This document shows, piece after piece, positions 36,433 to 51,252 of a stretch of DNA of 64,000 nucleotides. Below the pieces are notes generated by a model. It was not told the DNA's origin and ran no database searches. It saw nothing but the letters and a program-made list of their open reading frames with translations. A program made the position numbers and the translations under genes. Numbering within the stretch: the stretch's first letter is position 1; each line of letters starts with the position of its first letter. This DNA is from Candidatus Thorarchaeota archaeon (GTDB lineage: Archaea > Asgardarchaeota > Thorarchaeia > Thorarchaeales > Thorarchaeaceae). Location of the stretch: contig PRDH01000081.1 of assembly GCA_003345545.1 (NCBI GenBank), positions 32,001 to 96,000 of the forward strand, in the 5' to 3' direction.

Positions 36433-36600
36433 AAGTTTTCACCATCTTCAAGATGGTGAAGATTAGCTTGCCTGTCTTCGGACAGGTAGAGGTACAGGCC
36501 TTCGACGGGGAACGCGGTGCAATCGTAAGGTTGCCCCGACGCCAAAGTGGAGAACTTGCTCTTGCTGTCGCTGTTGAGCCACCCTTTTCCTTTTTCATTC
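36433..36600 (+). repeat. Native 16S 3' trailer (hairpins, processing-stem strand, T-tract); prototype of the array repeat
   Basis: Directly follows the 16S gene; ends ctgttgagccaccc-ttttccttttt. Confidence 0.9.
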
Positions 36601-36712
36601 ATTTACATATGCAAGTTGACTCTCTATGTGTCATCTTGGAGGAAGTCCTTTCTTGATTTTCTCCAAGAGATCTCGTACCTCGCCAAACATCGCATCATAA
36701 TCGATGACTATG

Positions 36713-37924
36713 CTAGAGTATCTCCGGAGTCGATTTTGAATCAATACCTGTGCGAGTCGCGCGAATTCTTCGTCTTCTCCAACGAAGACCAAGGATACCA
36801 ATAGTGAGTGCAATTGCAATTCCAGCGGTTCCAATGACTATCAGTAGAAGGTCCTCTTGACCTGAGAGGAGAAGCATGTCAAGATTGCCTCCTGCAGAGG
36901 TTCTGAGAATACAGCCATCGTATCCTACTACCCATCCGTGCAACTCATCAACGAAACAGACAGCCATCCTGCGACTGCCTATGTCGGTAGGAACTGATTG
37001 TTGATACCAGGTACTTCCACCATTCGGCGTGTGCATCACAGGGATCTCATCGCCTACGATCCATCCGTGCTGGTCATCAATGAATTGTATATCTGAACAA
37101 TATGGAGATCTGAGCCGAAATGAAGGAAGTCTTCCGGGGACAGCCAGCTCCTCCCACGTATGGTCTTGCTCCATGTGGAGGAGGTAGCCATCACTGACAC
37201 CCCATGCTTCGTCTTCGTTGGGAAACGATAGGCTCCAGCCTCCCTTATCAAAGACCTTCTCCCAGGTCTCCGCGCCATCATCGCTATGGTAGATACCATC
37301 ATAGCCAATCGCCCATACTTCATGCTCGGTCAAGAAATGCATGTCCCGAGGATTATCGTCAAACGTCCAACCAGTCATATTCTGCCAGGTCTGCCCTCCA
37401 TCAGTTGTTTTGAAAAGCATCTGCATCGTGGCAGTCCATCCATGGGTCTCATTGAGGAACTCCACCGTACTCATGGTCGACAGACGATTACTACCCGCAA
37501 GAGAGGTATGCCATGACGCTCCACTATCGTTTGTGAAGTAGAGACGACCGAGTCCAGTCACCCATACTGTTCGATCATTCACTACCTCAATTTGTCTGAA
37601 TATCTGCGAATCATCAGCGAGCTGGGTCTCCCAGGTGTCCCCACCGTCTTCTGTGTGAAGAATAATACCACCTCTAGTTATGTTAGGGTACAATATTCCC
37701 ACGACCCATCCGTGAGAGGAATTGATGAACTCAACATCACGAAATGTAGCCTCTGGGTAGTCGCTCTCAAGGGATATCCACGTTGTGGCCTGAGTCTGTG
37801 CAGGTCCTATCGACGCTGCATCTGTAGAAGTTATAGGCAGACCTGTGTATGCAAATCCAAGTAGGATCAGCAGTAGTATAGCACTGAGCCTGCGACCGGT
37901 TCTGGATGTTCTCAGGGGAATCAT
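36713..37924 (-). CDS. Ycf48/BNR-repeat beta-propeller surface protein with C-terminal membrane anchor
   Basis: Repeated TxDGGxTW Asp-boxes; start re-set to MIPLR because the longer ORF reads through the repeat. Confidence 0.88.
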   Translation of the reverse strand: MIPLRTSRTGRRLSAILLLILLGFAYTGLPITSTDAASIGPAQTQATTWISLESDYPEATFRDVEFINSSHGWVVGILYPNITRGGIILHTEDGGDTWETQLADDSQIFRQIEVVNDRTVWVTGLGRLYFTNDSGASWHTSLAGSNRLSTMSTVEFLNETHGWTATMQMLFKTTDGGQTWQNMTGWTFDDNPRDMHFLTEHEVWAIGYDGIYHSDDGAETWEKVFDKGGWSLSFPNEDEAWGVSDGYLLHMEQDHTWEELAVPGRLPSFRLRSPYCSDIQFIDDQHGWIVGDEIPVMHTPNGGSTWYQQSVPTDIGSRRMAVCFVDELHGWVVGYDGCILRTSAGGNLDMLLLSGQEDLLLIVIGTAGIAIALTIGILGLRWRRRRIRATRTGIDSKSTPEIL

Positions 37925-38000
37925 GCTCAGCTTATTCCTTACAGAATTGGTCTTGAATGAGTTATCATATAGGTCTTTGTCCACCTTAGGTGGATACGAA

Positions 38001-38110
38001 GTAGAGGTACAGGCCTTCGACGGGGAACGCGGTGCAATCGTCAGGTTGCCCGATGCCAAAGTGGGGAACTTGCTCGTGCTGTCGCTGTTGAGCCACCCTT
38101 TTCCTTTTTC
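38001..38110 (+). repeat. Trailer repeat copy 1
   Basis: Near-identical to 36486-36596. Confidence 0.95.
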
Positions 38111-38218
38111 ACCCATCTATCAGACTCAGTGGACCATTTATCAATTGATTTAAGAATCAGTCTGACTCCAAGTTCCTTGACTTTGATTACGTGGTAATGA
38201 TAGGGTGGCTAATGAAGA

Positions 38219-38674
38219 ATGACCAGTGACAGACTGGCAAAATGGATCATGGCTATTACAACTCTGTTTGCCCCCTTTGGCGTGTACGCTTTCTCAGTAC
38301 GTAACTCTATCCTCACGGTATCAATGCACGCTGTGTTATGGGGTATCATGCCAGGAGAGTCTGGAAATACTGGGTCGACACTATTTGATATGTACATCAT
38401 TATAGGGAGGGGTTTATTTTATGGCATCTTTAACATCTGGTTTGGCATAGAGGTCATCAGATACTTCAATGACTACACCCGTAGACGAATGGCCATTCAA
38501 TCGGGAATCATATCATTACTCTACCCCTTTGCAATGGTCATCATTTCATGGCCTTGGCTTCAACATTCAACAACATTTGAGTATCTTGGACCAATTCCCA
38601 TCCAATTTATCGTTGGTCTCTTGTTGATGAAGTACTTTGGAGAACAAAAACCTCTTGAACCTTGGAGCGATTAA
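38219..38674 (+). CDS. Hypothetical membrane protein
   Basis: 151-aa hydrophobic ORF, GPIPIQFIVGLLLMK motif. Confidence 0.75.
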   Translation: MTSDRLAKWIMAITTLFAPFGVYAFSVRNSILTVSMHAVLWGIMPGESGNTGSTLFDMYIIIGRGLFYGIFNIWFGIEVIRYFNDYTRRRMAIQSGIISLLYPFAMVIISWPWLQHSTTFEYLGPIPIQFIVGLLLMKYFGEQKPLEPWSD

Positions 38675-38858
38675 AATAGTGGCATTTGCTTCTCTATCTA
38701 CTACCTCGGTGGAAACCCTCTCTTGACACGTTTTAGCATGAATCGCATATTGGTTGAGAGTAGTTAATATTGACCGTTTCAGACAACTACATAGAGAGTT
38801 GATTCACAATCCCATAGATGAAAGAGTTTAATTCATAACCTTCGGATGGTAGTACATA

Positions 38859-39095
38859 ATGATGAAAGTAAAATTCACTGCTGTTGTATGGGAAGAAGAG
38901 GGGACATACGTTTCCAAATGTCCCGAGATTGATGTATCATCTGCAGGGGACACCGTTGAAGAGGCTCTGGCTAACCTCACAGAGGCAATAGAGCTCTGGC
39001 TCGTCAATGCACGTGAGCTTGGAATCATGGATGAGTATCTTCCGATGATGACTGCCTCTGAGAAGTCCACACGTACGATCGAGATCAACGTCTGA
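38859..39095 (+). CDS. hicB: HicB-family antitoxin
   Basis: YVSKCPEIDVSSAGDTVEEALANLTEAIELW. Confidence 0.92.
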   Translation: MMKVKFTAVVWEEEGTYVSKCPEIDVSSAGDTVEEALANLTEAIELWLVNARELGIMDEYLPMMTASEKSTRTIEINV

Positions 39096-39140
39096 GTTCT
39101 AGATTTGTATGGCCGTTATAGCTGGCACACAGTGATGTCA

Positions 39141-39374
39141 ATGAGTAAGTTACCTCAGATCAGTAGTAAGAAGCTCATCCGGAGGTTACTCAAGGCTGGT
39201 TTTCAATACGCTCCTGTGAAAGGAAAAGGTAGTCATACCGCTCTCGTCAGGTATGATGATAATCGACCATATCTCGTTATCATTCCTCACAGAGATCCGA
39301 TTCCAAAGGGAACTCTTCTCTCAATCATCAAACAGAGTGGACTATCAAAAGAGAAATTTCTAGGCTTGTTATGA
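39141..39374 (+). CDS. hicA: HicA-family toxin
   Basis: KGSH and IIPH...IPKGTLLSIIKQSGL motifs. Confidence 0.92.
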   Translation: MSKLPQISSKKLIRRLLKAGFQYAPVKGKGSHTALVRYDDNRPYLVIIPHRDPIPKGTLLSIIKQSGLSKEKFLGLL

Positions 39375-39422
39375 AGATTCGAGTACTCCTTTTGAAGGAC
39401 TGACTTGTTCATCCCAAATGAA

Positions 39423-39529
39423 TACAGGTCTTCGACGGCGGGGAACGCGGTGCAATCGTCAGGTTGCCCGATGCCAAAGTGGGGAACTTGCTCGTGCTGT
39501 TCGCTGTTGAGCCACCCTTTCGTTTTTCA
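39423..39529 (+). repeat. Trailer repeat copy 2
   Basis: tacaggtcttcgacggcggggaacgcgg...gctgttgagccacccttt. Confidence 0.95.
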
Positions 39530-39573
39530 CTAGTTACTTCAATCAGTGCTGATTGAGGTTGAATGCAGGAGTT

Positions 39574-39780
39574 TCAAGTCTCTCTGTAACTGAGTTTCAA
39601 TATTGCTAGAGCCACTGCAGATAGACCTAATGCAAGCACGATCATTTGAGCTCCAGCTATCACATCTGCGTTGAAGCCGCCCGATAGACTACCCAAGAGT
39701 AATGTTGCTGTTAATAATGCTAACACTACTAGAATATACACCAAAACTGATAGAACTCTCTGATGATTAATTGGAAACAC
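39574..39780 (-). CDS. Small 2-TM hypothetical protein
   Basis: 68-aa hydrophobic ORF filling the interval between two repeats. Confidence 0.5.
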   Translation of the reverse strand: MFPINHQRVLSVLVYILVVLALLTATLLLGSLSGGFNADVIAGAQMIVLALGLSAVALAILKLSYRET

Positions 39781-39886: not shown

Positions 39887-39958
39887 GGGTACGGACCAAC
39901 GGGGTCGGACTGTCGGGGAACTTGCCCCTGCTGTCGCTGTTGAGCCACCCCTTCATTC
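39887..39958 (+). repeat. Trailer repeat copy 3 (short variant)
   Basis: ggggaacttgcccctgctgtcgctgttgagccacccc. Confidence 0.9.
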
Positions 39959-40034
39959 TTCAGCTGGCTGTTTGAGTGCAGATTGATGGAGGAGTTTATA
40001 TATCTACATCTACACATGTAGATTGTGAAGTAGT

Positions 40035-40283
40035 ATGACATCAAAGACAATCTCTGTGACAGAAGATGTCTACAACCTTCTCCGGAAGATGCGATTACCT
40101 GGTGAGAGTTTCGGTGATACCATCAACCGACTATGTAAGTCCAAGACATCACTCTCTCTCCGTATATGGGCTGAGTCCTCCGATGGCTGGAGCGATTTGA
40201 CCCCTGAAGAAGCTACACGACTGGAAAACACCCTTGAAACAATCCGCATCACACTTCATCCCGAAGAGGTCGATCTAGATTGA
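40035..40283 (+). CDS. vapB: VapB-family antitoxin
   Basis: KTISVTEDVY...GESFGDTINRL pattern; overlaps a PIN gene. Confidence 0.88.
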   Translation: MTSKTISVTEDVYNLLRKMRLPGESFGDTINRLCKSKTSLSLRIWAESSDGWSDLTPEEATRLENTLETIRITLHPEEVDLD

Positions 40284-40687
40284 TCTTCTTGGACACCACC
40301 CTTCTTGTAGACATCCTGAGAAAGGATAGGGTGGCAATCTCATGGCTGAATGACCTTGAAGAGCAAGCTCTGTATACATCAGAAATCAATGTCTTTGAAC
40401 TATATACCGGCCTCTTCCGCGTTTCCCAAGGTTCTACTACAAAAAGAAAGAAGAGGGCTCTCGAGCTCGAGCAACTTCTCTCCAGGATGGAAGTACTTAC
40501 GTTTGACAGAAATGCTGCCATTGAATCCGCGAAGATACTCTCCCTCCTGATGAGCAGAGGAGAACCCATTGGTACGCGTGACATCATGATTGCTGGTGTG
40601 GCACTATCCACGGGGATAACACAGCTAGTGACACGCAATATCCAAGAGTTCCAAAGGATTCCAGGTATACGTGTTGACTCCTACTAG
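40280..40687 (+). CDS. vapC: VapC/PIN-domain toxin
   Basis: FLDTTLLVD...EL...DIMIAG...VTRNIQEF. Confidence 0.93.
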   Translation: MIFLDTTLLVDILRKDRVAISWLNDLEEQALYTSEINVFELYTGLFRVSQGSTTKRKKRALELEQLLSRMEVLTFDRNAAIESAKILSLLMSRGEPIGTRDIMIAGVALSTGITQLVTRNIQEFQRIPGIRVDSY

Positions 40688-40749
40688 ATTGACTTCTTGC
40701 ATGAATCAATAATCACGAAGCATAGAATGGTTCAATAACCTTGAAGCAT

Positions 40750-41122
40750 ATGAAGGCTGAAACCGTGTTAATCTCATTGCTGTTCTGTGGCAGTTCCCTG
40801 CAATCTCAGACGCCCCTCATTTCGAGATACTCTCTAGTCTTCGGTTGGTTTTCTTCATAGTTGTAATGACATACATCTGGTCTTCGCACTATCAGTCAAT
40901 GAGTACTTACAAGGAAAATCAACTGCATTCAGGGTCTCCATACTCTGGGCTGTCAGTCAGACGCCTATTCATGTACTTAGCCTTCCCCGTTGTTTTACAG
41001 GGTCATATCCTGGATCGATCTTCTACACCGGTCCTACATTCATAATTCTGATTGCCGGGTTGCTCTTGATGAAGCTCGTTCGGCAACGCAGCAATAGGCT
41101 GTGGGTCGAGTCTACTCAGTAG
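40750..41122 (+). pseudogene. Frameshifted relic of the 38219-type membrane protein
   Basis: 3' frame reads GPTFIILIAGLLLMKLVRQRSNRLW*, similar to GPIPIQFIVGLLLMKYFGEQKPLEPW; no continuous ORF. Confidence 0.55.
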
Positions 41123-41152
41123 GACACTCTCGAGACGATGAATCATGCATAT

Positions 41153-41250
41153 GCTTTCAAGGCAAAATGCAGTGCAATCTTCAGGTTGCCCCGACGCCAA
41201 GGTGGGGAACTTGCCCCTGCTGTTCGCTGTTGAGCCACCCTTTTCTTTTT
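41153..41250 (+). repeat. Trailer repeat copy 4
   Basis: gcagtgcaatcttcaggttgccccgacgcc...gctgttgagccacccttttcttttt. Confidence 0.93.
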
Positions 41251-41409
41251 ACAATATCTTTCAGAATGAGTTGAGTCTATTTTCTATCATGAGATCATTG
41301 TGATATTGAGATGTCCGTTAGAATTCTCTTCACATCATCTATTGTCAACAATCTGAAATGGACCATTATTGATGGTGTTTTTTTGAGCATCTCTATTGAT
41401 TCAATCGAA

Positions 41410-41847
41410 TTAGATATTGGTCGGGTCAAGTCTTGTTAGACCTTCTATTCTATCATAGATACGATCTGTTGAAGCAATAGTATGATCCGGATTGTCATTA
41501 CTGAGTGAAACTGCTGCATAAATCGCATCAAAGATGGAACCCAATCTATAATTCTCCAAGAGATATAGCGCTGCTAGTTGATGATCAATTGTAGAAGGGA
41601 CAACTGAGATATTTGGGAACGTAACAACGTGACTTATGATATCACGAACTGAGGACACACCAGTGAGGTTTCTCAAGACATAGTAAAGTTCTATGGAGAA
41701 GATACTTGGAACAAGGACACTCCCGAACTTACCTTCTTCAATACTTGAGAAAAGTCGAGTCGCATGCGTTTTTAGATTGTCATTCTTCTTATAGAACGCC
41801 AAGATCATATCGTTCTCGATTAGCATTCCGTTTCTTTCCGCCTCCAT
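41410..41847 (-). CDS. PIN-domain (VapC-like) toxin (start probably ~41826)
   Basis: LIENDMI...IEL...FDAIYAA...STDRIYD. Confidence 0.88.
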   Translation of the reverse strand: MEAERNGMLIENDMILAFYKKNDNLKTHATRLFSSIEEGKFGSVLVPSIFSIELYYVLRNLTGVSSVRDIISHVVTFPNISVVPSTIDHQLAALYLLENYRLGSIFDAIYAAVSLSNDNPDHTIASTDRIYDRIEGLTRLDPTNI

Positions 41848-42068
41848 CGTTTGGATACATCCTTCGCAATCTCTGCATCTGCTTTGGCAAGGAGGTCCGC
41901 AATTGGTCCCTCAATATCCAATTCTGGTTTATCAGAGGGGATAGGAAAGAGGATATGATAAGATCCAATGGTAAGGAGAAGAAAAGTATCTCCTTCGAGT
42001 CCTGCCTTTCTTGGGATTCTGATGCGTCTTTGATCATCCATTCGAACTCTTACCATCAAGATGAACAC
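41820..42068 (-). CDS. AbrB/MazE-like antitoxin
   Basis: VRMDDQRRIRIP motif; overlaps the PIN gene. Confidence 0.8.
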   Translation of the reverse strand: MFILMVRVRMDDQRRIRIPRKAGLEGDTFLLLTIGSYHILFPIPSDKPELDIEGPIADLLAKADAEIAKDVSKRWRRKETEC

Positions 42069-42202
42069 CTCGTATGATTGTAAGACAAATATGATTTAAA
42101 GATATGGATGAAATTCACACTTTATGGATGAAATATGTATATATTGACCTATTTCTATCAGGCTACAATATTCGGCGACATCTCATTCGATTGATTCAGG
42201 GA

Positions 42203-42431
42203 GTATCCGACGCGGAAGCTGCGGATGGAAGAAGTTGAGATTTCCTCATCTTCCATCACTCACCTCCTATTTTTTCTACTTCATAGAGGTAGAAGCAGCT
42301 TGGCTCGCAGTCCTTCGGGGCTGTGGGAGAAGTACGGGCCTTCGACAGCGGGGAACGCGGTGCAATCGTCAGGTTGCCCCGACGCCAAAGTGGGGAACTT
42401 GCTCTTGCTGCGGCTGTTGAGCCACCCTTTT
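42203..42431 (+). repeat. Trailer repeat copy 5, including an orphan 16S 3' end (helix 45 and anti-SD, 42203-42268) interrupted by a 30-nt BHB intron (42230-42259)
   Basis: gtatccgacgcggaagctgcggatgga[30 nt]tcacctcct, then a complete diverged trailer. Confidence 0.93.
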
Positions 42432-42532
42432 CGTTGTCTATCGTCAATTTCGGATGAGTGTAAGTCAGGTTTATCTTCTCTCTCGTTTGCTTTCAGGTTT
42501 AAATATGTGACTTGACCAAGTGGGAATAATCA

Positions 42533-43300
42533 GTGAAAGTCAAATGTTTTGATTGTGATGAAGTGATTGAAGCGGACAGCCTTGAAATGCTAGCAGATGT
42601 TTTTGTGACACATGGTATAAGGATCCATTCTTGGGAGTATCCCGAAGAGGCGATAAGAAATTACGCCTGCAATTACGCAGAAGCAGTAGAGCGACTCACA
42701 GGTGATACAGCAAGAAAAGAGGAAATTGGCGAAATCACGATACATCCAGTCACAAAGGACTCCATAGATGATTGGTTACATTTTTTCGATCATGATGGTT
42801 TCGCCGATAATCCTGGGTGGGCATCCTGCTACTGCCTCCAACCACATTTACCTACGACAGATGAGAACCTAGATCGTCCATGGCGTGAATCACGATCAAT
42901 CATGGTCAAACGCCTCTTAAAGGGAGAAACATTTGGGTACTTAGCGTATGTTGATAACAAACCAGTGGGATGGGTAAACGCTTCTTTGTGCAGTGAGTAT
43001 AAGCTTCTTCAACAAAGCGATCCGAATGGTCCTGAGTCAGCATCAATAATTGGTATCTCGTGTTTCGTGGTTGCTCCGCCCTATAGAAGACATGGAATTG
43101 CGTCAGCCTTACTCGATCGTGTTATTGCGGACGCTGCCTCCCGTGGTGCATTGTGGATTGAGGGCTACCCTCGCAATAAGCCCGAGAGTAAAGATGACGC
43201 GCACTTTCGAGGACCTAGTAGTATGTACACTAATCGTGGATTCCAACCAGTTGTTGTTCGAGGACGTGATACTGTAATGCGTTTGCAGGTACACTATTGA
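42533..43300 (+). CDS. GNAT-family acetyltransferase
   Basis: CYC...ISCFVVAPPYRRHGIA...IEGYP. Confidence 0.9.
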   Translation: MKVKCFDCDEVIEADSLEMLADVFVTHGIRIHSWEYPEEAIRNYACNYAEAVERLTGDTARKEEIGEITIHPVTKDSIDDWLHFFDHDGFADNPGWASCYCLQPHLPTTDENLDRPWRESRSIMVKRLLKGETFGYLAYVDNKPVGWVNASLCSEYKLLQQSDPNGPESASIIGISCFVVAPPYRRHGIASALLDRVIADAASRGALWIEGYPRNKPESKDDAHFRGPSSMYTNRGFQPVVVRGRDTVMRLQVHY

Positions 43301-43344
43301 CTTCCCTTCAATGAAATTATAAGTAATCATCAACATTATGATTT

Positions 43345-43810: not shown

Positions 43811-43830
43811 CTCACCTCAGATAGAGTTTC

Positions 43831-44160: not shown

Positions 44161-44189
44161 TATGCTCACCAAGCGTTTCATACGGACAC

Positions 44190-44268: not shown

Positions 44269-44385
44269 CTATTCTTATGACTGGACTCTCGTTTTTGTTC
44301 GAATAAATTCCCGACTGTCACAACTCTAATATGATATTGTGATCTACATCTACTTTGAGTGGGCTAACTAGGATGGAGGTCAAAG

Positions 44386-45135
44386 ATGGCTGGCAATAGT
44401 CTTGGACTCAGTCCTCTTCAGAAGAGCATGATTATAGGCTATGCCTTCTTTGTTGTTGCGTACAGTCTAAGCATCATGACCGCACTCTTGATTGGAGGTA
44501 TCGGAGGACTTGTGCCTAGGGGCTCTCTCTGGTTCCGGGTGACCTACGACCTGCTCAGGCAGAGCACCAATCTTGCAATGCCGGTGTTCATCTCCATTCT
44601 CCCCCTGTTAGTCATGCTCAACCTGAACTATATATGGTTCAAACACCTATCCACGTCCGAGCCTCTCTCTGCAAGGAAAGTGTCTATTCAGACTGTCCTT
44701 GGCGTCTTCGTTGCTCTTCCTCTCTTGATACTTGCCGTGAGCATGATGGTCGTTTCTGCAGAGTCGATTATCGGGTGGTATGAACAATGGCCTGTCTATG
44801 GTGTTATTTTCTTCGTCGTATCTCTGCTGTACATGCTTGTAATCTCCGTCATCTCAGCAAGTGAGAAGAAGCGGTTCCTAGTTCAAAGTCTTACGAGTGC
44901 TCGCCTGTGGGTGCCATATGTCCTCGTCTCCGTCTTGCTGGCTTTCCCAGTTGCTGGAGTAATTCTCCCCTTCTTCAAGGGGTATTGGATGTCAATTCCT
45001 CTTGGCCGAGCGTTAGACACTTTTTTGAGAGCATTCTGGGTATCCTTGGTCCTGCCGGTTCTTCCGTACATATTTGCTCGCCTAAGCGTGAAACCTGATT
45101 CTCCTAGCGGATTCTCAGATGAAGGCTCGAAGTAG
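44386..45135 (+). CDS. Hypothetical multi-pass membrane protein
   Basis: About 6 TM segments; stop codon overlaps the next repeat. Confidence 0.75.
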   Translation: MAGNSLGLSPLQKSMIIGYAFFVVAYSLSIMTALLIGGIGGLVPRGSLWFRVTYDLLRQSTNLAMPVFISILPLLVMLNLNYIWFKHLSTSEPLSARKVSIQTVLGVFVALPLLILAVSMMVVSAESIIGWYEQWPVYGVIFFVVSLLYMLVISVISASEKKRFLVQSLTSARLWVPYVLVSVLLAFPVAGVILPFFKGYWMSIPLGRALDTFLRAFWVSLVLPVLPYIFARLSVKPDSPSGFSDEGSK

Positions 45136-45232
45136 GGACGGCGGGGAACGCGGTGTAATCGTCAGGTTGCCCCGATGCCAAAGTGGGGAACTTGCTCTTG
45201 CTGTTCGCTATTGAGCCACCCTCTCATTCTTC
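45129..45232 (+). repeat. Trailer repeat copy 8
   Basis: gacggcggggaacgcggtgtaatcgtcagg...ctattgagccaccc. Confidence 0.93.
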
Positions 45233-45320
45233 ACCCGTCTAATCACCCCAGTTGATTCTCCATTTGCTATCTGGGGATTCCATCTAATTCATCACTTGGG
45301 TGGAGTTTCAGAATCTCCTG

Positions 45321-46463
45321 TTAGGCCCTACCACCCTCCACGCTATCACCCGGCGTTCTTACCCTTTTCAACCACCAGCATAGGATAACAATGGCTGCTA
45401 ATCCACCAACGAGTAAGAGCGGTTCCAAGCCTATGCTAGGTCCACCACTCTCTCTGATTTCCAGAATGACGAACCCGTTATCTTGGTCTGTCATATAGAC
45501 TAGATTACCGACCACTTCAACACGGTTAGGCTTACCGCCATCGAAGTAGCGGGTAACTTCAGTAAGCTGAGTTGGATTTTGAATATCTAGTAGCAGTAGT
45601 CCTAATTCAAGATCACAGAGAAATGCAAGATTGCGCTCAGTGTCAATGTGAACAGAAAAAGCATCCAAACTCTCATTGAATTCAGATACAACTCTGATGT
45701 TTGATAGATCACTTATATTCAGTACCTTGAGGCTCTTATCCCAATAACTTAGAAAAGCTAAATCTCCAACGATCTCAAGATCACCCATGTCAGTATCGCT
45801 AGTCGACTGTCCTATGTACTGTGCTAGTAGTATTGGATTAGTGTAGTTACCAACGTCAAAAACAGTGAACCCTTTGTAGCTTGTCGTCACAAATGCCAGA
45901 TTATCCAAAACCTCAATATCGGTTGCACCTCCAATTGTGATGAAACTGCTCAGTAGTGTAGGTGTGGTAGGATCCGTCACATTGACAATCGTCAGTTTCC
46001 CACCACTGCCTGGGAATCCATTGGCAACGAAGGCTACATCTCCTATCACTTCTACATCCCACGCATAATCACCAGTGAACTGACTCAGAACAGCGGGGCT
46101 AGATATGTTCTCGAAATCGATAATTCTGAGTCCGCCATGACCATCCCCTATGAACACTAGATTATCACGCATGACAAGTTGGTGTGCATATCCACTTGAG
46201 GAAGAAGATACGTTTGCTATCTCAATCGGATTAGTCGGGTCACTAATATCAAAGACCTTTACTCCAGAGTAACCACATGTAACATAGGCCATGTCATTGT
46301 CGGTATCGACCCACACGTCATAGGCATCACCAGTTTCAATCTGTCCAGCTTTTGTTAGCACAATCCCACTCGTACTCGCTCCAGACGCGAAACAGATTGC
46401 TCCTGACTCTAGAATGAGGACTAACGCTAGAATGCAAACGACGGTAATGAGTCTGCTCTTCAT
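45321..46463 (-). CDS. LVIVD-repeat beta-propeller surface protein
   Basis: Repeated (V/I)xDxSxPTxP units, signal peptide, C-terminal TM. Confidence 0.88.
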   Translation of the reverse strand: MKSRLITVVCILALVLILESGAICFASGASTSGIVLTKAGQIETGDAYDVWVDTDNDMAYVTCGYSGVKVFDISDPTNPIEIANVSSSSSGYAHQLVMRDNLVFIGDGHGGLRIIDFENISSPAVLSQFTGDYAWDVEVIGDVAFVANGFPGSGGKLTIVNVTDPTTPTLLSSFITIGGATDIEVLDNLAFVTTSYKGFTVFDVGNYTNPILLAQYIGQSTSDTDMGDLEIVGDLAFLSYWDKSLKVLNISDLSNIRVVSEFNESLDAFSVHIDTERNLAFLCDLELGLLLLDIQNPTQLTEVTRYFDGGKPNRVEVVGNLVYMTDQDNGFVILEIRESGGPSIGLEPLLLVGGLAAIVILCWWLKRVRTPGDSVEGGRA

Positions 46464-46739
46464 TCTATGTTTCCTCCATCACTGATTTCCATCAACATTT
46501 CGGCTCCTAATGCCCTAATTCTCAGATTGCATGAAGACAAAATCATGCACCAAGAGTCGCGATGTTTCATTGAATTAAGAATGGCGTTCAGCGCAGGCGA
46601 TGTGTACATACTCCACAATGTTCGAGCATCGCAAGAAGCCATACCGCAAGAGTGTCTTCTTTCATGGCTGACATCGTGCATTAGAAATGTAATAGGAGCA
46701 GATTCCGCCGTTCCTAGGAACTGGATCTCTTGGCAGAGA

Positions 46740-46817
46740 GAAGTATAGATTGGTGGAGTCTGGTAATCAGGGAACTTGCCCCTGCTGTTCGCTGTTGAGC
46801 CACCCTTTTCATTTTTC
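46740..46817 (+). repeat. Trailer repeat copy 9 (short variant)
   Basis: cagggaacttgcccctgctgttcgctgttgagccacccttttc. Confidence 0.92.
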
Positions 46818-46958
46818 ACAGTGTTATCTTAATGAGTAGAGCCTATCTTCCTTATCGGAATGTCTTCGTTCGAAACATCTTTCACAGTTGTACCACACTC
46901 TATGAATCTGTGTAGCTTTATAACTGTCAGAACCCACGCTGATTTGAGGTACGCATCA

Positions 46959-47318
46959 ATGGTTAAAGAGATAGAGATTTCCGTGGAGGCTTACAGTCTT
47001 TTAGAAAAGGCGAGATTGCAGGGTTGGCAATAGCTGCAAGACACTTGAACAGAGTTGGACAGGTGCTTATATAGTTCAGTCCGAACTAGTCCTGTGAGGA
47101 TGACCCGACATGAACTCTATCCTCACGGAGTTGTGCCCAGTGCCGTCTTCTGGGCGGACAGCACTCTGGTGTCCAAGTTTGTCCAACTAACAATGAACGG
47201 TGAAGATATCAGTGATACGATCCTCCGCCTAATAGAGTTGAGAGAACGAACTGAATTCGTCAAGCGTCAGAAGCAAATTGCTGAGGCTGAGGACTTCCTT
47301 CCACTTAATCAATCCTGA
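46959..47318 (+). pseudogene. VapB-like antitoxin gene interrupted by a 177-bp insertion
   Basis: MVKEIEISVEAYSLLEKARLQG / EDISDTILRLIEL...FLPLNQS rejoin in frame when 47025-47201 is removed. Confidence 0.75.
47025..47201. mobile_element. Putative non-autonomous insertion (MITE-like) with subterminal inverted repeats
   Basis: GGT at both junctions; AGTTGGACA (47053-47061) / TGTCCAACT (47180-47188); internal hairpins. Confidence 0.5.
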
Positions 47319-47345
47319 GATTGAGTCAAGTCTGAAACCAGACAG

Positions 47346-47693
47346 ATGTCTTCATATACTCTGTCATACATAGTATACATGATAGAGATGGGCGATGTTC
47401 TTTCAGTCAGAATGGATGAAGAATTGGAGAAGCGTCTTGCATTCCTGATGGAGAAGAAGAAGATAGTGGATAAATCATCATATGTAAGGCAGCTCATTGA
47501 TAGGTCTCTATCAGATGATCTTCTCGATTATCTGTCTGAGGAAGTTGCTGCTAGACATATCAGCATCTGGAAGGCTGCTTCTATTGCCGGTATCCCACTC
47601 AGGGCCATGATGAGTGAGCTGGCAAAACGTAACATATCGATGTATGATGAACAAGCACTCACTGAGGACTTGATTTTTGCAGAGGGCAGATGA
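47346..47693 (+). CDS. UPF0175-family putative antitoxin (start probably ~47388)
   Basis: LSVRMDEEL...ISIWKAASIAGI pattern; precedes a DUF3368-like gene. Confidence 0.8.
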   Translation: MSSYTLSYIVYMIEMGDVLSVRMDEELEKRLAFLMEKKKIVDKSSYVRQLIDRSLSDDLLDYLSEEVAARHISIWKAASIAGIPLRAMMSELAKRNISMYDEQALTEDLIFAEGR

Positions 47694-47694
47694 A

Positions 47695-48198
47695 TTGATT
47701 GCAGTCGTCAACTCATCACCTCTCATATACTTGGGGAAACTTGGTCTTCTTAGCTTGCTACAACAATTGTTTGACCATGTGCTCACTGTTCCTTCTGTGA
47801 AGGAAGAGGTTCTTGATTCTTCTGCTTCTGAATATGCCACACTGCAGAGTGCATTCTCAGACTGGTTGATAGTGTCTGATGTTCCAAAAAGCGTTCTCTC
47901 AACAAGACTGAGCGATATGGGCCTCCATCAAGGCGAGGTGGACACTCTTGTACTTGCTTATCATACGAAAGAGCAACAATCCGATTCGGTCATTATTATT
48001 GATGACCTAGCAGCTAGAGACGTAGCTAGATCGCTAGGGCTGAGAGTGGCCGGAACTATCGGTATTATTCTACGAGCAACAAAGAATGGGTTACTTACAA
48101 AAAATGAATCACGCGCCAGAATTCGTTTTCTTGTTGAAGAAACATCATTCCGGATGTCAGCTGCATTGTACTCCAGAGTCATCTCTGGTCTAGAATGA
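47695..48198 (+). CDS. DUF3368-family PIN-like protein
   Basis: VVNSSPLIYL...LHQGE...IIDD..AR...GTIGII. Confidence 0.88.
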   Translation: MIAVVNSSPLIYLGKLGLLSLLQQLFDHVLTVPSVKEEVLDSSASEYATLQSAFSDWLIVSDVPKSVLSTRLSDMGLHQGEVDTLVLAYHTKEQQSDSVIIIDDLAARDVARSLGLRVAGTIGIILRATKNGLLTKNESRARIRFLVEETSFRMSAALYSRVISGLE

Positions 48199-48222
48199 GT
48201 GAATCTTAGAGTTACTGAGAAT

Positions 48223-48330
48223 GACAGGTATGAGCCCTCGACGGCGAACGCAGTGCAACAGTCAGGTTGCCCCGACGTCAGAGTGGGGAACTTGCCCTTG
48301 CGTTCGTTGTTGAGCCACCCTCTTCATTTT
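48223..48330 (+). repeat. Trailer repeat copy 10
   Basis: ccctcgacggcgaacgcagtgcaacagtcaggttgcccc...gttgttgagccaccc. Confidence 0.9.
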
Positions 48331-48406
48331 ACTTAGCGATTCCGCTACTAGGAACCACATCTTCATAGGCAGAGGGCACCATAAACACCAATGAGATGAT
48401 AGGTGA

Positions 48407-49075
48407 ATGAGTGATATTGAGCGTCAAACACTGTGTTTTCAGTACTGTGGTGAAGTGAATACTGAAAGAACATTGTTAGCTGCAAGAGAGCGCTGCAAGA
48501 CGCTTGATTTGAGCAAAGTGGTAGTTGCTTCCGAAACTGGAAGAAGCGCCTTGAAAGCTGTTGAGGTCTTCAAGAATTCGGATATCATCTTGATTGTTGT
48601 GACTCACTATCCTGCCTCAACATGGGGCCCAAAAGGAAGGATACCGATAGGTCTTGGTCGTCACGAATACACTGATACTCGAGAAGCTTTGGTTAACCAT
48701 GGTGTCAAAATAGTCCAGAGCACAAGACCATTCGCACCACCGTCAAGATCTTTAGACTGGAACTATCCTACGCCTGAGGCAATCATCGATCGAACACTCG
48801 ATGTATTCGGTTCCGGGACCAAAATTGCTATTGAAGCGGCAATCATTGCTGTGGACTGCGGAGAAGTCGAAGAGGGTGAAGATGTCATTTCATGTGCAGG
48901 CACATTCAAGGGACTCGATACAGCTCTATGCGTTCGGCCAACATATACGATGAATTTCTTTAAGTCATTCGAGATTCGAGAAATAATCGCCAGACCCGTG
49001 TGCAGAGTTCAGACACTGCCAGAGCATGAACACAAGAACTGGAAAGGTAACCTCGACCAATATCTTACTCAATGA
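48407..49075 (+). CDS. Pyruvate-kinase C-terminal-like domain protein
   Basis: GEVNTERTL...VVASETGRSA...FGSGTKIAIE...GLDTA pattern. Confidence 0.75.
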   Translation: MSDIERQTLCFQYCGEVNTERTLLAARERCKTLDLSKVVVASETGRSALKAVEVFKNSDIILIVVTHYPASTWGPKGRIPIGLGRHEYTDTREALVNHGVKIVQSTRPFAPPSRSLDWNYPTPEAIIDRTLDVFGSGTKIAIEAAIIAVDCGEVEEGEDVISCAGTFKGLDTALCVRPTYTMNFFKSFEIREIIARPVCRVQTLPEHEHKNWKGNLDQYLTQ

Positions 49076-49123
49076 CAACAAAGTTGAATCAAGAAAGTAG
49101 ATTATATCCATTCCACCACTCTT

Positions 49124-50143
49124 TTGAGAGGCCTTCTTCCGCCAAACCCTGAAATGCAAACCATTGCTGTGATTTGGCTCATGGTCTTCTTAGGAGGATA
49201 CATCGCAATCTACCTTCTAGCTGATCTCATCATCGACGCTCTAGAGAATCTCAGTCAATCATTTGCTATCTCTCCCATAGTCTTAGGACTACTAGTCCTT
49301 GGAATTGATGTAGAAGAGAGCATTGTTTCCTTAGTTGCAGCTGTAGATGGTCTCCCCTATCTTTCACTTGGCCAACTCATAGGAAACACAGTGATAGCAA
49401 TTGCGATTGCATTCGGCGTACCTGCTCTCTTTCTCAGAATTGAGGTCGACCAGCTTCCAAGATTCTACTATGCTGAGCTGGTGATTGCAGGTATAGTAGT
49501 GTTGGTATCAATGGTCCTGACAAGCTACCTGATCGTATTCGGACTTCTGGCCATTGCTCTCTTCGTCATTCATTTACGCCACACTTTTCACATACAAAGG
49601 GAATTCAGGTCGGCCGTCAGAAGTCCGGAACGGTTTGAACTGACTCCCAATTTGGAACGTGAAAAATGCACAGGCGAAAAGAGTGAAGGTCGTGCGCGGT
49701 TTGTAATCAAATTGCTGCTGGCTCTACTTGCTGTGTTCGTTAGCGGTGAGGTCTTGGTTGTCAGTGCTGAGGAGCTTGTCGTCTTAACCGGACTAAGTGA
49801 AACTTTCTTTGGATTGGTCATAATGGCGGCTGTGACCAATGTTGAGGAGTTCTGGCTCATTGTCAAGGCGGTACAAAAAGGTCAGACTGCATTGGGTGTG
49901 AGTGCGCAGGTTGGTAAGATAATCTGGAACACCACGTTAATCTTCGGGCTCTGCAGCCTGTTTCTGTTTCAGTTCACATTTGAGATGATAATGCTGACGA
50001 GCTCGATTATCTTTGTCTTTGCACTCGTCGTATTGGTAGTTAATCTCACTCAGAATCGATCATCGAGAGCGACCGGTATTGGCTATCTATTGATTCTCCT
50101 GATTTTCCTAGCCATCAATTCCCTTGGTTTTCTGATAGGCTGA
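49124..50143 (+). CDS. Sodium:calcium antiporter-like membrane protein
   Basis: Two internal repeats (LGLLVLG...EE; FGLVIMAAVTNVEE), about 10 TM. Confidence 0.8.
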   Translation: MRGLLPPNPEMQTIAVIWLMVFLGGYIAIYLLADLIIDALENLSQSFAISPIVLGLLVLGIDVEESIVSLVAAVDGLPYLSLGQLIGNTVIAIAIAFGVPALFLRIEVDQLPRFYYAELVIAGIVVLVSMVLTSYLIVFGLLAIALFVIHLRHTFHIQREFRSAVRSPERFELTPNLEREKCTGEKSEGRARFVIKLLLALLAVFVSGEVLVVSAEELVVLTGLSETFFGLVIMAAVTNVEEFWLIVKAVQKGQTALGVSAQVGKIIWNTTLIFGLCSLFLFQFTFEMIMLTSSIIFVFALVVLVVNLTQNRSSRATGIGYLLILLIFLAINSLGFLIG

Positions 50144-50157
50144 ATCTGGTGATGAAA

Positions 50158-50236
50158 GAAGTAGAGGCTGACGGAGTCAGGCGTTCAGGGAACTCTCCAG
50201 TTCCTCGAACTGGTGAGCCATCCTTCTCGTTTTCAC
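50158..50236 (+). repeat. Trailer repeat copy 11 (degenerate)
   Basis: gaagtagagg...cagggaactctcc...ctggtgagccatccttctcgttttc. Confidence 0.65.
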
Positions 50237-50273
50237 TTATCTCATCAATCTTAGAACAGGAGCAATTCCTCGA

Positions 50274-51053
50274 TTATAGTGCCTCTCTGACCTCTCTCTT
50301 GAAGTTCTCAGCGTCAAAGAATCCTGACCTTATTGGTCGCTGGTTGACAATGCAATCAGGGACTCTGCCTCCTCTCTTCTCAACCTCTTCAGGCTGATTG
50401 AGCTTGTTGATGGTCTGTATCGGGATGCTAGGAGAAACCTCTCTAATCAGCTGTACCATCTTTTCGACGAAGCGAATGCTGAATGGACAAGTCCCATCGA
50501 AAAAGATCAGAGCCTTCTCTCTGTCCTCGCTCCTCCGAGTGTATCTCTCTTTTGGAGGCGTGTAGGTTACACCATCCCTTAATGGGTAGCAGAGTAGGTG
50601 AGGATCTTCGGCGGTCGCACTAAACCCCTTCTTCCGATAGAACTCATGTTGAGTGTATGTCCCAGGAACATCAAATGCATTGGTCACAAGTGCTTTGACA
50701 GTCATATTTCTGAAACATGACACAGGAGTCGTCACATCATCGATCAAGCTCTTCAGCAAAGCGCTACCAATCCCCTTTCTAAGATGCTTGTCGCTTGGAA
50801 CGAATATGCAGGCTATTTTGACCACGTTTTCGTCTGGGCAAGGCAGGTATTGAATCATACCGACAGGTTTTGTACCATCGTAGGCGAGTTTTCCGATACA
50901 CCCTTTCTCGGCCAGCATACGTTCAACCCAATCAGCCTTCAGGCTTATTCCTCTCTTGAAGGAAGATTCATCAGCTCTATCAGCTGGCACACACAATCTG
51001 ACGAAGTCCTCTAGGTTCTCTCTGCTGACATTCCTAGTATGAAATCTAGCCAT
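50274..51053 (-). CDS. GNAT-family acetyltransferase (YoaP-like)
   Basis: VGMIQYLP...IACIFV...RKGIGSALL; C-terminal CPF. Confidence 0.85.
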   Translation of the reverse strand: MARFHTRNVSRENLEDFVRLCVPADRADESSFKRGISLKADWVERMLAEKGCIGKLAYDGTKPVGMIQYLPCPDENVVKIACIFVPSDKHLRKGIGSALLKSLIDDVTTPVSCFRNMTVKALVTNAFDVPGTYTQHEFYRKKGFSATAEDPHLLCYPLRDGVTYTPPKERYTRRSEDREKALIFFDGTCPFSIRFVEKMVQLIREVSPSIPIQTINKLNQPEEVEKRGGRVPDCIVNQRPIRSGFFDAENFKREVREAL

Positions 51054-51180
51054 ATGTTCTCATACACGCCATTTGTGAATTGCATTCTACGTGAGAGAAT
51101 ACAAGCCTTTCCGTAATCTCTGAATCACCTGAAGCAGAACCTGATTGAGCACCAAAAGCGCCAATAGGCTACCCCGCCGC

Positions 51181-51228
51181 CGAAGCAGGGAATTTGTCCT
51201 TTGCCGTTGAGCTACTTTTTCATTTTTC
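51181..51228 (+). repeat. Trailer repeat copy 12 (very degenerate)
   Basis: cagggaatttgtcctttgccgttgagctactttttcattttt. Confidence 0.55.
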
Positions 51229-51252
51229 GTTCACTTACATTTTCGAGTGAAC

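Follow-up and report, generated by a model that had tools for sequence, protein, structure and literature searches.

Copies of the 16S rRNA gene tail bound an array of exchangeable gene cassettes in Thorarchaeota archaea

Several described systems place mobile or variable DNA beside conserved genes. The SCCmec-type composite islands of staphylococci occupy the 3' end of rlmH (orfX), where Ccr serine recombinases act on a short fixed site, and the hypervariable region HVR2 of SAR11 lies between rRNA genes. Naturally transformable bacteria reportedly undergo homology-facilitated illegitimate recombination, in which one end is anchored by homology and the other is joined at a microhomology, usually with deletion rather than duplication; we know of no demonstration of it in archaea. 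The tycheposons of Prochlorococcus are tandem integrative elements at the 3' ends of tRNA and tmRNA genes (bioRxiv 10.1101/2020.12.28.424599), the elements HeimM2 and HeimV2 of Heimdallarchaeum insert between the 16S and tRNA-Arg genes (Wu et al., 2022, PMC8813620), and integrons including CALINs have been reported from Asgard archaea (Ghaly et al., 2022, PMC9668308). Since the last study lists only two Thorarchaeia MAGs with two attC sites each, the Thorarchaeota arrays considered here were not detected as integrons, and we found no paper describing cassette arrays bounded by 16S tails.

Like tycheposons and additive flexible islands, the present locus uses the 3' end of a stable-RNA gene as its anchor and has modules bounded by direct partial copies of it, growth by stacking, content varying between close relatives, and many cargo-only modules. 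Unlike tycheposons, it is anchored on the 16S (and 23S) tail with its processing helix instead of a tRNA gene, its modules are of integron-cassette size with exchange points spread across the repeat, and an integrase was not found in most of the genomes examined and never on an array contig. SCCmec islands likewise consist of stacked, often recombinase-less elements whose direct repeat copies the 3' end of a conserved translation gene, but here no Ccr-type enzyme was found and repeat length is 50-230 nt. HeimM2/HeimV2 and HVR2 also exploit an rRNA gene flank as an insertion or hypervariable site, the former in Asgard archaea too, but each consists of either one large element or an island that can be replaced, not of a tail-bounded array of small cassettes. 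A sequence-only reading of the locus had termed it integron-like, which holds only as an analogy: as in sedentary chromosomal integrons and CALINs, long arrays carry cassettes of 1-3 genes rich in toxin-antitoxin and GNAT genes, the cassettes are shuffled between relatives, and the invariant repeat core includes GTTGAGC, a fit to GTTRRRY, the consensus of the attC R' site. The likeness ends there, as the tail arrays have no IntI, no fixed G|TT crossover and genes on both strands, their repeat derives from the rRNA trailer, and structure prediction gave no attC-type fold or hairpin in the repeats.

The 64-kb stretch of DNA analysed (the window) contains the only 16S rRNA gene in the whole assembly of this Thorarchaeota (Asgard) archaeon and, as judged with Rfam, no 23S or 5S gene (Table 1). 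The repeat unit is a copy of the 3' strand of the pre-16S rRNA processing helix, a leader-trailer duplex of ~90 bp, together with a T-rich end, because the leader motifs GGCTCAACAG (34710-34719) and GCCTGTACTTC (34765-34775) pair with the trailer motifs CTGTTGAGCC and GAGGTACAGGC, respectively, and hence with both ends of the unit. The leader motifs of 34695-34785 recur in the genomes G017, G006 and G042, and across the four genomes the leader is conserved and the leader-trailer duplex is predicted at -96 to -120 kcal/mol. High conservation of the native helix throughout the family makes every tail copy a piece of portable homology.

Table 1. Features of the 16S rRNA locus and the downstream array, in window coordinates
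Feature	Position	Strand	Evidence or remark
Inverted repeat copies flanking a 141-aa membrane-protein ORF, 12 kb upstream of 16S	22438-22515, 21896-21973	-	nhmmer
5' leader strand of pre-16S processing helix	34695-34785	+	Inverted repeats I21, I24; leader-trailer duplex -95.9 kcal/mol
16S rRNA gene, complete, archaeal (anchor)	34871-36432	+	Rfam RF01959, 1246 bits, model positions 1-1478
Two 30-nt mini-intron-like insertions in resident 16S	36229-36258, 36360-36389	+	Comparison with 1502-nt gene of G017
Proximal trailer, two hairpins (36438-36460, ~36471-36486), preceding processing-helix strand	36433-36484	+	Inverted repeat I20, sequence, fold
Native repeat copy, long type: processing-helix 3' strand, T-rich end, AGTTGACTCTC motif	36485-36624	+	Repeat search, sequence, fold
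Cassette 1: Ycf48/BNR-type beta-propeller, ORF 36713-38116 (true start probably internal)	36625-37998	-	Pfam PF14870, 3.5e-26
Repeat copy 2, long, 96% identity to native	37999-38111	+	Repeat search, alignment
Cassette 2, two blocks: unknown 151-aa ORF (38219-38674); HicA (39105-39374) with small partner ORF	38112-39415	+	Pfam PF07927
Repeat copy 3, long	39416-39530	+	Repeat search
360-nt cassette before repeat copy 4: 68-aa ORF	39574-39780	-	ORF list
Repeat copy 4, short	39887-39963	+	Repeat search
Cassette 4: VapB (40035-40283), VapC/PIN (40280-40687), small ORF	39964-41140	+	Pfam PF02697, PF01850
Repeat copy 5, long, 5'-truncated	41141-41253	+	Repeat search
Cassette 5: PIN toxin (41410-41847), 82-aa partner (41820-42068)	41254-42202	-	Pfam PF01850
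Repeat copy 6, with foreign 16S 3' end and full trailer	42203-42440	+	D5 family, alignments
Cassette 6: GNAT (42533-43300), ParD-like/ParE pair (43345-43810)	42441-43819	+	Pfam PF00583, PF05016
Repeat copy 7: short-type 5' start fused to native-like long body	43820-43936	+	Alignment
270-nt cassette before repeat copy 8	43937-44189		Also in G001, G002, G010, G018, G082
Repeat copy 8, short	44190-44268	+	Repeat search
Cassette 8: unknown 249-aa protein (44386-45135)	44269-45117	+	ORF
Repeat copy 9, long	45118-45234	+	Repeat search
Cassette 9: LVIVD beta-propeller (45321-46463), 119-aa ORF	45235-46740	-	Pfam PF08309, 1.2e-34
Repeat copy 10, short	46741-46818	+	Repeat search
Cassette 10: small ORFs, UPF0175 antitoxin-like (47346-47693), DUF3368 PIN-like (47677-48198)	46819-48220	+	Pfam
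Repeat copy 11, long, 83% identity to native	48221-48333	+	Repeat search, alignment
Cassette 11: PK_C-like protein (48407-49075), Na/Ca exchanger (49124-50143)	48334-50158	+	Pfam
Repeat copy 12, short, decayed	50159-50236	+	Repeat search
Cassette 12: GNAT acetyltransferase (50274-51053)	50237-51164	-	Pfam PF00583
Repeat copy 13, most decayed	51165-51256	+	nhmmer E 1.3e-6; D4 family
Unknown 308-aa gene after repeat copy 13	51253-52179	-	ORF

All 13 trailer copies named in the sequence-only reading were recovered by repeat search and nhmmer (E-values of 8e-33 to 1e-6) as co-oriented units between 36.5 and 51.2 kb, and two minus-strand copies that it had missed were added, with matches at 22440-22514 and 21898-21973. 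The motif TGAGCCACCC anchors the copies at 36575, 38089, 39508, 39941, 41231, 42418, 43914, 44246, 45212, 46796, 48311 and 50214. Alignment established that the copies have a common 3' end and a variable 5' extent, as had been read from the sequence, and that there are two types of copy, a long one of ~115 nt and a short one of ~80 nt; their median spacing is 1.4 kb, and the cassettes between them measure ~0.3-4 kb. Being short, repeated and non-coding, with 157 copies in 24 genomes of the genus, the repeat could be taken for an ordinary non-autonomous MITE-like element that resembles the trailer by chance. However, its 16-nt core is confined to the 16S locus in the whole 2.69-Mb assembly (the reversed-pattern control gave 0), in line with the earlier view that the repeat is not scattered; a repeat-model search of the whole genome added one isolated copy at C12:6830-6912. 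Rare strays aside, there is one locus per genome; moreover, the copies run in direct orientation with the 16S gene throughout each array, lack terminal inverted repeats and target duplications, and represent the rRNA's own processing strand. The MITE reading, which we regard as having next to no likelihood, was rejected on the genome-wide distribution.

An artefact of assembly was also considered, in which contigs had been stitched across the repeat from the 16S flanks of several strains and the array existed in no single cell. Indeed, all the genomes are MAGs from mixed communities, arrays often lie at contig ends, and one pair of copies has an exact match of 62 nt, the longest seen. On the other hand, the next longest match is 41 nt, below the usual final k-mers, so that the array is no simple assembly-graph artefact. 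In addition, the same architecture was found in dozens of MAGs from different groups and assemblers, contigs of 36 and 243 kb run unbroken from the 16S gene through arrays of 7-10 copies, and the differences between copies track their neighbours. We therefore consider such an artefact very improbable; the assemblies are the basis for the cassette order given for each MAG.

The copy at 38.0 kb, nearest to the 16S gene, is almost identical to the native trailer and the weakest copies are found at 50.2 and 51.2 kb, as had been noted from the sequence. In this genome, identity to the native copy falls with distance (rho -0.66, p 0.02), and predicted pairing with the leader weakens from -73 to -36 kcal/mol (rho 0.90, p 5e-5). 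The earlier expectation that the newest cassettes stand beside the 16S gene thus drew moderate support here, but the gradient was not seen in G017 or G006, and a recent difference between G007 and G017 is located mid-array. These data also bear on a reading in which the copies are maintained as RNA elements, either as terminators or processing signals that would insulate cassette transcripts from the strong rRNA promoter or release them, or as decoys for leader pairing, with recombination being secondary. The T-rich end and helix motifs kept in every copy, the leader pairing of most copies far above that of shuffled versions (z -3 to -7), and the shared orientation of all array copies with the 16S gene would suit such roles. 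The steady decay of pairing with distance, however, is what scars would display, a plus-strand terminator would be useless for the roughly half of cassettes on the opposite strand, and neither the differing gene order at every copy nor the same pattern behind a protein gene (etfA) is explained; we accordingly judge this reading improbable.

The cargo comprises two VapBC/PIN pairs, HicA, ParE, UPF0175 with DUF3368, two GNATs, propellers and a Na/Ca exchanger; Pfam searches bore out the gene types first read from the sequence, membrane proteins among them, and their placement on both strands. The 249-aa protein of cassette 8 had no match in Pfam or NCBIfam. Many of the modules recur elsewhere. 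A homologue of cassette 1 occurs twice in G001 (C30); the two blocks of cassette 2, with a break at 38690/38691, are found apart in G003 and G001; cassette 4 is also present in G001, G003, G014 and, in another genus, G092; and cassette 10 is found in G005 and G010 as well. On C17 of G001, cassettes 6 and 9 have counterparts of 95% and 93% identity, the latter at another array position, and a homologue of the 308-aa gene is bounded by one more repeat. In six genomes, the ParDE block of cassette 6 begins sharply on the left at 43308.

Co-oriented arrays were identified in 28/28 genomes of the genus, beginning directly after the 16S gene in G017, G006, G042 and G015; this anchoring refers to genomes with an assembled 16S 3' flank. 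Arrays built from the trailer of the respective genome also occur in at least four further genera of the family, represented by independent Thorarchaeota MAGs, and all contigs with several core matches came from Thorarchaeota MAGs of independent studies. Toxin-antitoxin, GNAT, beta-propeller and membrane-protein cassettes are common to different species and genera, and, as had been anticipated, content and order vary in every related species examined. Between this genome and G001, the same cassettes stand in another order at 93-95% identity, versus 83-86% for flanking core genes. Comparison of 155 junctions yielded 188 pairs, with only the left flank in common in 117, only the right in 71, and both in 0. 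These results showed that species and genera differ by gain, loss and re-ordering of cassettes, and that every copy is a recombination junction.

As for the breakpoints, homology ends at -104 to +12 in pairs with a common left flank, and for most pairs with a common right flank it begins at -94 to +4; the exchange points are scattered over ~100 nt with no fixed crossover. At their 3' end, the copies have ~35 nt that are genome- or clade-specific: in G017, 6/7 copies match the native copy in 3' sequence, while their cassettes are common to other clades. In several three-way comparisons, the final switch from left to right sequence lies in or beside the invariant core. Repeat copy 6 includes the ~36-nt 3' end of a 16S gene: helix 45 (42203-42229) and the anti-SD tail TCACCTCCT (42260-42268), with a 30-nt mini-intron (42230-42259) between them that is absent from the resident 16S gene. 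Its identity to the 16S end native to G003 is 92%, and copies resembling the native trailers of other species had been predicted; cassette 5 adjoining a helix-45-bearing copy was also found in G010 and in G066, of a different genus. Altogether, 17 helix-45-bearing internal copies occur in nine genomes with 12 different left contexts. In these 12 contexts, the start of 16S homology falls -10 to +5 nt from a single 16S base, the 5' foot of a stem-loop, instead of at the variable point of joining that had been proposed, and the 5' limits lie within about 15 nt of the mini-intron site.

This clustered 5' limit resembles integrase att sites, and plain homologous recombination offers no explanation for it. 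Such a position, at the 5' foot of a stem-loop, is reportedly typical of integrase sites in tRNA genes. A site-specific enzyme supplied in trans, such as an integrase encoded on a plasmid or virus outside the bins, or a host enzyme that escaped recognition, could accordingly be envisaged, with the tail copies as att sites, insertion at the helix 45 foot or the trailer core, and later homologous recombination blurring the junctions, by analogy with integron CALINs, ccr-less SCC at rlmH and integrase-less tycheposon satellites. The attC-like motif, the switches at the core and the two Heimdallarchaeum elements inserted exactly between 16S and tRNA-Arg (PMC8813620) would agree with it. However, the tyrosine recombinase family PF00589 is absent from this genome and from 20/28 genomes of the genus, and was never found on an array contig among the 28. 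The earlier remark that no integrase is visible was upheld, as none was detected among the larger ORFs at 17.6-59.3 kb of the window. A serine recombinase was found only in G001 of five genomes tested, no Y1 transposase was found in the genomes searched, and the repeat core had no match in IMG/VR. TnpB-like genes are variably present (none in G017), and LAGLIDADG matches lie within ORFs of >1000 aa and not in rRNA introns or arrays. Further, the ~100-nt spread of breakpoints speaks against such an enzyme, the core is fully explained by leader pairing, and at least three unrelated anchors (16S, 23S and etfA) would call for several enzymes or an unusually flexible one. With MAG completeness at 71-99% and mobile elements frequently escaping binning, we retain a trans-supplied recombinase as a possible, though rather unlikely, explanation.

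The locus is probably, in our judgement with somewhat more than even confidence, an integrase-less additive genomic island that is anchored on the tail of the only 16S gene and shuffled by host homologous recombination within the copies. Because relatives have the same modules in other orders and no integrase was found, the rRNA tail appears to be a landing pad for gene exchange, which supports the rRNA-anchored accretion platform of the sequence-only reading. From the breakpoint spread and the absence of recombinases, we infer that exchange would proceed by general homologous recombination of the host with no need for a dedicated site-specific recombinase, although gene conversion after a site-specific event could have blurred the breakpoints. 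Gene conversion may take place inside the tail copies, and circles excised between direct repeats may re-insert at any copy, including after transfer between relatives. Homologous recombination can shuffle existing copies but would not alone account for the origin of the first tail duplicate. With less confidence, new tail copies might be born at the anchor by break-and-join at preferred points, one of them being the helix 45 foot beside the hairpin mini-intron, where donor DNA anchored by 16S homology would enter by copying or joining and thereby displace the resident tail downstream. Homology-facilitated illegitimate recombination could make a new tail copy with no site-specific enzyme, but joins clustered at a single site, as seen here, are not among its predictions.

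The tail-copy process is general and reaches beyond the 16S anchor of the sequence-only reading: it also operates behind the 23S gene and, in at least one case (etfA), behind a conserved protein gene, where the same tail-copy signature is found. Two copies of the 23S tail and trailer lie downstream of the 23S gene of this genome and enclose a YdjM gene and a HepT/MNT toxin-antitoxin pair, and extra 23S-tail copies were found in five other genomes. In etfA of this genome, the last 46 nt plus 19 nt are duplicated 660 nt downstream. This pattern at 23S and etfA is new here, as are the 16S-bearing copies that start near the mini-intron site in 12 contexts.

All 13 direct copies of the 16S rRNA 3' trailer that an earlier sequence-only reading had placed downstream of the 16S gene were recovered in the source genome G000 (a MAG of 2.69 Mb, 93% complete, with the window at 32001-96000 of contig C81), and comparison of the copies bore out its description of a common 3' end with a differing 5' extent. 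Two further copies, inverted, were located at 21.9 and 22.5 kb, and no 23S or 5S gene was found near the 16S gene of the window. The repeat occurred in two forms, a long one of ~115 nt carrying an extra internal hairpin and a short one of ~80 nt. The intervals between the copies, hereafter cassettes, encoded Ycf48/BNR and LVIVD beta-propeller proteins, HicA, two VapBC/PIN pairs, ParE, a UPF0175/DUF3368 pair, two GNATs, a Na/Ca exchanger and several unknowns, with about half of the cassettes on each strand. Ten unknown cassette proteins gave no NCBIfam match, and two unknown proteins of ~305 aa, one at the outer end of the plus array and one at that of the minus array, were not related to each other. 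The coordinates of the features are summarized in the table.

Table. Features of the 16S-tail array and of related loci. Positions without a contig name are those of the window; G000, source genome; G001 and G017, related genomes; C, contig; L, locus.
Feature	Position	Remarks
Archaeal 16S gene, complete	34871-36432	
16S 5' leader motif GGCTCAACAG	34710-34719	
16S 5' leader motif GCCTGTACTTC	34765-34775	
Two 30-nt insertions in the 16S gene near the 3' end	36229-36258, 36360-36389	Versus the 1502-nt gene of G017; conserved sites
Helix-45-bearing repeat copy	42203-42440	Reaches farther 5'; helix 45, 30-nt mini-intron, anti-SD tail, full trailer
Isolated internal hairpin of the long-type repeat	55869-55905	Between a pyruvate formate-lyase-like gene and an alpha/beta hydrolase gene
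Stray repeat copy, complete, short type, outside any array	G000 C12:6830-6912 (L116, 3831-3913)	Between two small unknown ORFs
23S gene	G000 C34:17067-20140 (L117 is C34:17067-24018)	
23S-tail copy, longer	G000 C34:22006-22136	Last 57 nt of 23S plus 74 nt of trailer; 98%
23S-tail copy, shorter	G000 C34:20977-21035	59 nt
etfA tail repeats	G000 C21:19400-20300 (L118)	Second copy 660 nt on
Possible weaker etfA tail copy	G000 C21:21644-21671	
TnpB/Cas12f-like ORF	G001 C31:6342-6545 (L022)	580 aa
tRNA-like elements, ~84 nt, minus strand	22696-22613, 21649-21566	83% identical
34-nt copy of the tRNA-like 5' part, minus strand	23347-23315	
Intron-containing tRNA, minus strand	30305-30408	104 nt

The two leader motifs of the 16S gene were complementary to both ends of the repeat unit, and co-folding of leader and trailer gave a long helix for the native copies of four genomes (G000 and its relatives G017, G006 and G042), the leader motifs of which were near-identical, as is characteristic of the archaeal pre-rRNA processing stem. 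Because the leader motifs complement the unit ends and leader and trailer fold as a long helix, the repeat unit is, on these predicted folds, the 3' strand of the pre-16S processing helix followed by a T-rich end, an identity that explains the conservation of GAAGTAGAGG, GACGG, GGRAC..TTYCC and TGTTGAGCC within the repeat. About half of the copies in the related loci, including several native trailers, also carried a semi-conserved motif, ATYCATCTAT...AGTGGACTCTCTAT, 15-45 nt past the T-rich end. This motif may extend the trailer or may act as a promoter/terminator element.

A search with a model built on the repeat detected co-oriented arrays in every one of the 28 genomes of the genus, and in each of the four relatives in which the 16S 3' flank was assembled, the array followed directly after the gene. 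Outside the genus, the genome's own trailer was repeated downstream of 16S in other genera of the family (G082, G066, G097, G092 and G075). No such repetition was observed in G045, in G091 or in G025, a member of another family. In total, 157 copies, at a median spacing of 1417 nt, were counted across 39 contigs of 24 genomes, among which mixed copy orientation was confined to the window, the copies elsewhere being direct within the array. Since the public records containing the repeat are Candidatus Thorarchaeota archaeon MAGs from many studies and assemblers, and since the longest exact match between two copies of the window array was 62 nt and the next 41 nt, the array is unlikely to be a stitching artefact, judging from the sequences compared. 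The 16-nt core had no occurrence in the G000 assembly outside the window locus, so that the repeat was, as anticipated, not scattered in the manner of a MITE; with neither dispersal nor terminal inverted repeats, and with direct orientation within arrays, a MITE or other non-autonomous transposon was rejected. The array is real, a cassette island that lacks an integrase, is anchored on the 16S tail and occurs throughout the lineage. A stray copy on another contig adjoins a ThiI gene, with a tRNA-Sec gene ~1.3 kb away, and a solitary internal hairpin of the long-type repeat lies beyond the array.

The cassettes of the window recurred in other species at other places, in line with the variable content predicted beforehand. 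Contig C17 of the relative G001 held the GNAT-ParDE, LVIVD and 43.9-kb cassettes at 85-95% identity in an order unlike that of G000, and the core genes flanking the array were only 83-86% identical between the two genomes. Some cassettes were also common to other genera, always within 16S arrays. VapBC was present in G092, the PIN pair, together with its helix-45-bearing copy, in G066, and the 43.9-kb cassette in G082. When the flanks outside the repeat were compared for 155 junctions, 117 pairs shared the left flank only and 71 the right flank only, and none shared both. Three-way comparisons showed that copies track the left cassette in the 5' body and the right one in the T-rich end and the following DNA; the estimated change-points ranged from -104 to +12 in the left-shared pairs and from -94 to +4 in most right-shared pairs, indicating that the switch did not occur at one place. 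Furthermore, the last ~35 nt of the copies were typical of the genome or clade and not of the cassette. The 3' sequence was identical in six of the seven copies of G017, the native one included, a second 3'-end type was common to G003, G010 and G023, and G014, G042 and G011 shared others. By sequence comparison, this junction pattern is as would be expected for homologous recombination and gene conversion within the repeat, and not for an integron-type enzyme.

The mechanism of the array is inferred, and host homologous recombination within the tail copies appears the most likely, and a reasonably probable, means of shuffling. A site-specific enzyme acting in trans is the main rival, which we regard as rather unlikely. 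The lack of a visible integrase remarked on from the window extended to the whole of G000, which gave no match to PF00589 (tyrosine recombinase); 20 of the 28 genomes of the genus lacked this family, the 97%-complete G001 among them, and in the other eight it never lay on an array contig. No array contig of the 28 genomes matched PF00589 or PF00239. Serine recombinases were found only in G001 among five genomes tested, no Y1 transposases were found, and TnpB-like genes numbered from 0 to 16 per genome; none of PF00589, PF00239, PF01797, PF07282 and PF14528 was common to the array-bearing genomes. LAGLIDADG matches sat inside ORFs of more than 1000 aa and not in rRNA introns or arrays. Two 18-nt cores searched as virus- or plasmid-borne attP sites gave no matches in IMG/VR, and the matches of the helix-45 motif, sought on the integrase contigs of the genus, were instead all (26 of 26) on 16S or array contigs.

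An integron-like character, as proposed in the sequence-only reading, held only by analogy. The array works like an integron, and its cassettes fit in size and content, with the median spacing given above and toxin-antitoxin and GNAT genes, yet five of the 12 cassettes lie on the minus strand, and there was no IntI, attC fold or fixed G|TT crossover. In ten single-strand DNA folds (five copies, both strands), an attC-type hairpin was not supported, the z values being -2.1 to +0.8 versus shuffles; the ends of the repeat unit did not pair with each other in the DNA folds, and RNAalifold found no common self-structure over all copies. As in the additive islands at stable-RNA genes, the array begins at the 3' end of an RNA gene and its units are bounded by direct copies of that end, for both 16S and 23S. 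Unlike in such islands, no unit encodes an integrase.

In G000, identity to the native copy dropped with distance (rho -0.66, p 0.02), and the predicted leader pairing also weakened with distance (rho 0.90, p 5e-5), a gradient in keeping with insertion close to 16S, the older copies having decayed. The internal copies might alternatively be kept by selection as RNA elements, against which the decay of leader pairing argues. The expectation that the newest cassettes lie next to 16S was supported by these trends in G000 but not by G017 and G006, neither of which showed a significant trend, and an age gradient was therefore rejected as a general rule. Given these two genomes, and given that the recent difference between G007 and G017 sits inside the array, proximal insertion is not the sole route.

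The helix-45-bearing copy of the window resembled the native 16S end of G003 (92%) more closely than the resident end, in agreement with the idea that trailer copies match the native ones of other species. Incoming DNA had been supposed to join at a variable point in the resident 3' end or trailer, but all 17 copies that reach into 16S, from nine genomes and in 12 different left contexts, began between -10 and +5 nt relative to the base at which helix 45 starts, and thus had a fixed start point in the target gene, as tandem integrative elements at stable-RNA genes do; trailer-only copies had several different start points. The longest 16S-reaching copies began exactly at the 3' exon start after a 30-nt mini-intron, the more distal of the two 30-nt insertions that look like hairpin mini-introns in the G000 gene. 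A second mini-intron, between GGATGGA and TCACCTCC, was present in nearly all 16S-reaching copies, even where the native gene is without it, and all three sites formed a presence/absence mosaic across the genus. Such a clustered 5' limit would not be predicted by plain homologous recombination, and the alignments point to the foot of helix 45 as a favoured place of breakage or crossover, where a hairpin might induce a break that is then repaired from donor DNA, or where some site-specific step might act.

Tails of other genes were also duplicated. The two 23S-tail copies of G000, downstream of the 23S gene, enclose genes for a HepT/MNT toxin-antitoxin pair and for the membrane protein YdjM, and extra 23S-tail copies were present in G001, G002, G010, G017 and G024. 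At etfA, a stretch made up of the last 46 nt of the gene and the next 19 nt recurs downstream (85% over 65 nt, E 2e-16), and a small insert lies between the two. The occurrence of several unrelated anchors (16S, 23S and etfA) argues for a general process and not for a 16S-specific recombinase. More tentatively, and with considerable doubt, we propose a general capture of genes in Thorarchaeota without an integrase, by break repair in the tails of conserved genes with the DNA of relatives. In genes of very high conservation and expression (16S, 23S, etfA and others), breaks would occur at favoured positions within the tails, one of which adjoins the hairpin mini-intron where helix 45 of 16S has its foot, and would be repaired with relatives' DNA, homology within the gene serving as anchor. 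The repair would push the resident tail downstream, where it could become a reusable recombination site, and the outcome would be integron-like in its working, run by host repair and recombination enzymes.

Among known systems, the closest are the tandem integrative elements at tRNA/tmRNA genes (for example tycheposons) and the integrons/CALINs, both of which the array resembles in its working, differing from the former in having no integrase and no fixed crossover and from the latter in having no integrase, attC structure or fixed crossover, together with the SCC composite islands at rlmH and the 16S-flank insertions HeimM2 and HeimV2 in Heimdallarchaeum (PMC8813620). The study that reported integrons in Asgard archaea (Ghaly et al., 2022; PMC9668308) lists no more than two MAGs of Thorarchaeia, each with two attC sites, and window-type arrays are not these 'integrons', the array core being absent from their data. 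The open-access papers searched contained no account of cassette arrays built on rRNA tails.

Eukaryotes have no closer known relatives than the Asgard archaea, and the uptake of foreign genes by these archaea bears on models of eukaryote origin. The locus offers a family-wide route to gain or swap accessory genes without known integration enzymes, in which the rRNA tail and the processing helix, the most conserved sequence in the cell, act as a common currency between species; if host recombination drives the process, the integron would have here a simple analogue that is enzyme-free. The 16S 3' end, mini-introns included, is a replaceable mosaic, which matters for phylogeny and primer design, the arrays of tail copies break assemblies at rRNA genes, and the 16S flank is the place to seek strain-specific genes of Thorarchaeota.

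A TnpB/Cas12f-like ORF in the first interval (9 kb) behind the 16S gene of G001 shows that the arrays also receive insertion sequences. Upstream of the 16S gene of the window, an intron-containing tRNA was missed by ARAGORN and recognized by Rfam. Two paralogous tRNA-like elements have a class-II-type D-arm and a CAA-anticodon-like loop and lack a T-arm; their identity as tRNAs was rejected, as neither Rfam nor ARAGORN made a call at 21.6 or 22.65 kb. These elements, interleaved with the two inverted trailer copies, occupy a low-GC stretch (21560-23350) that may be a second small insertion hot spot.
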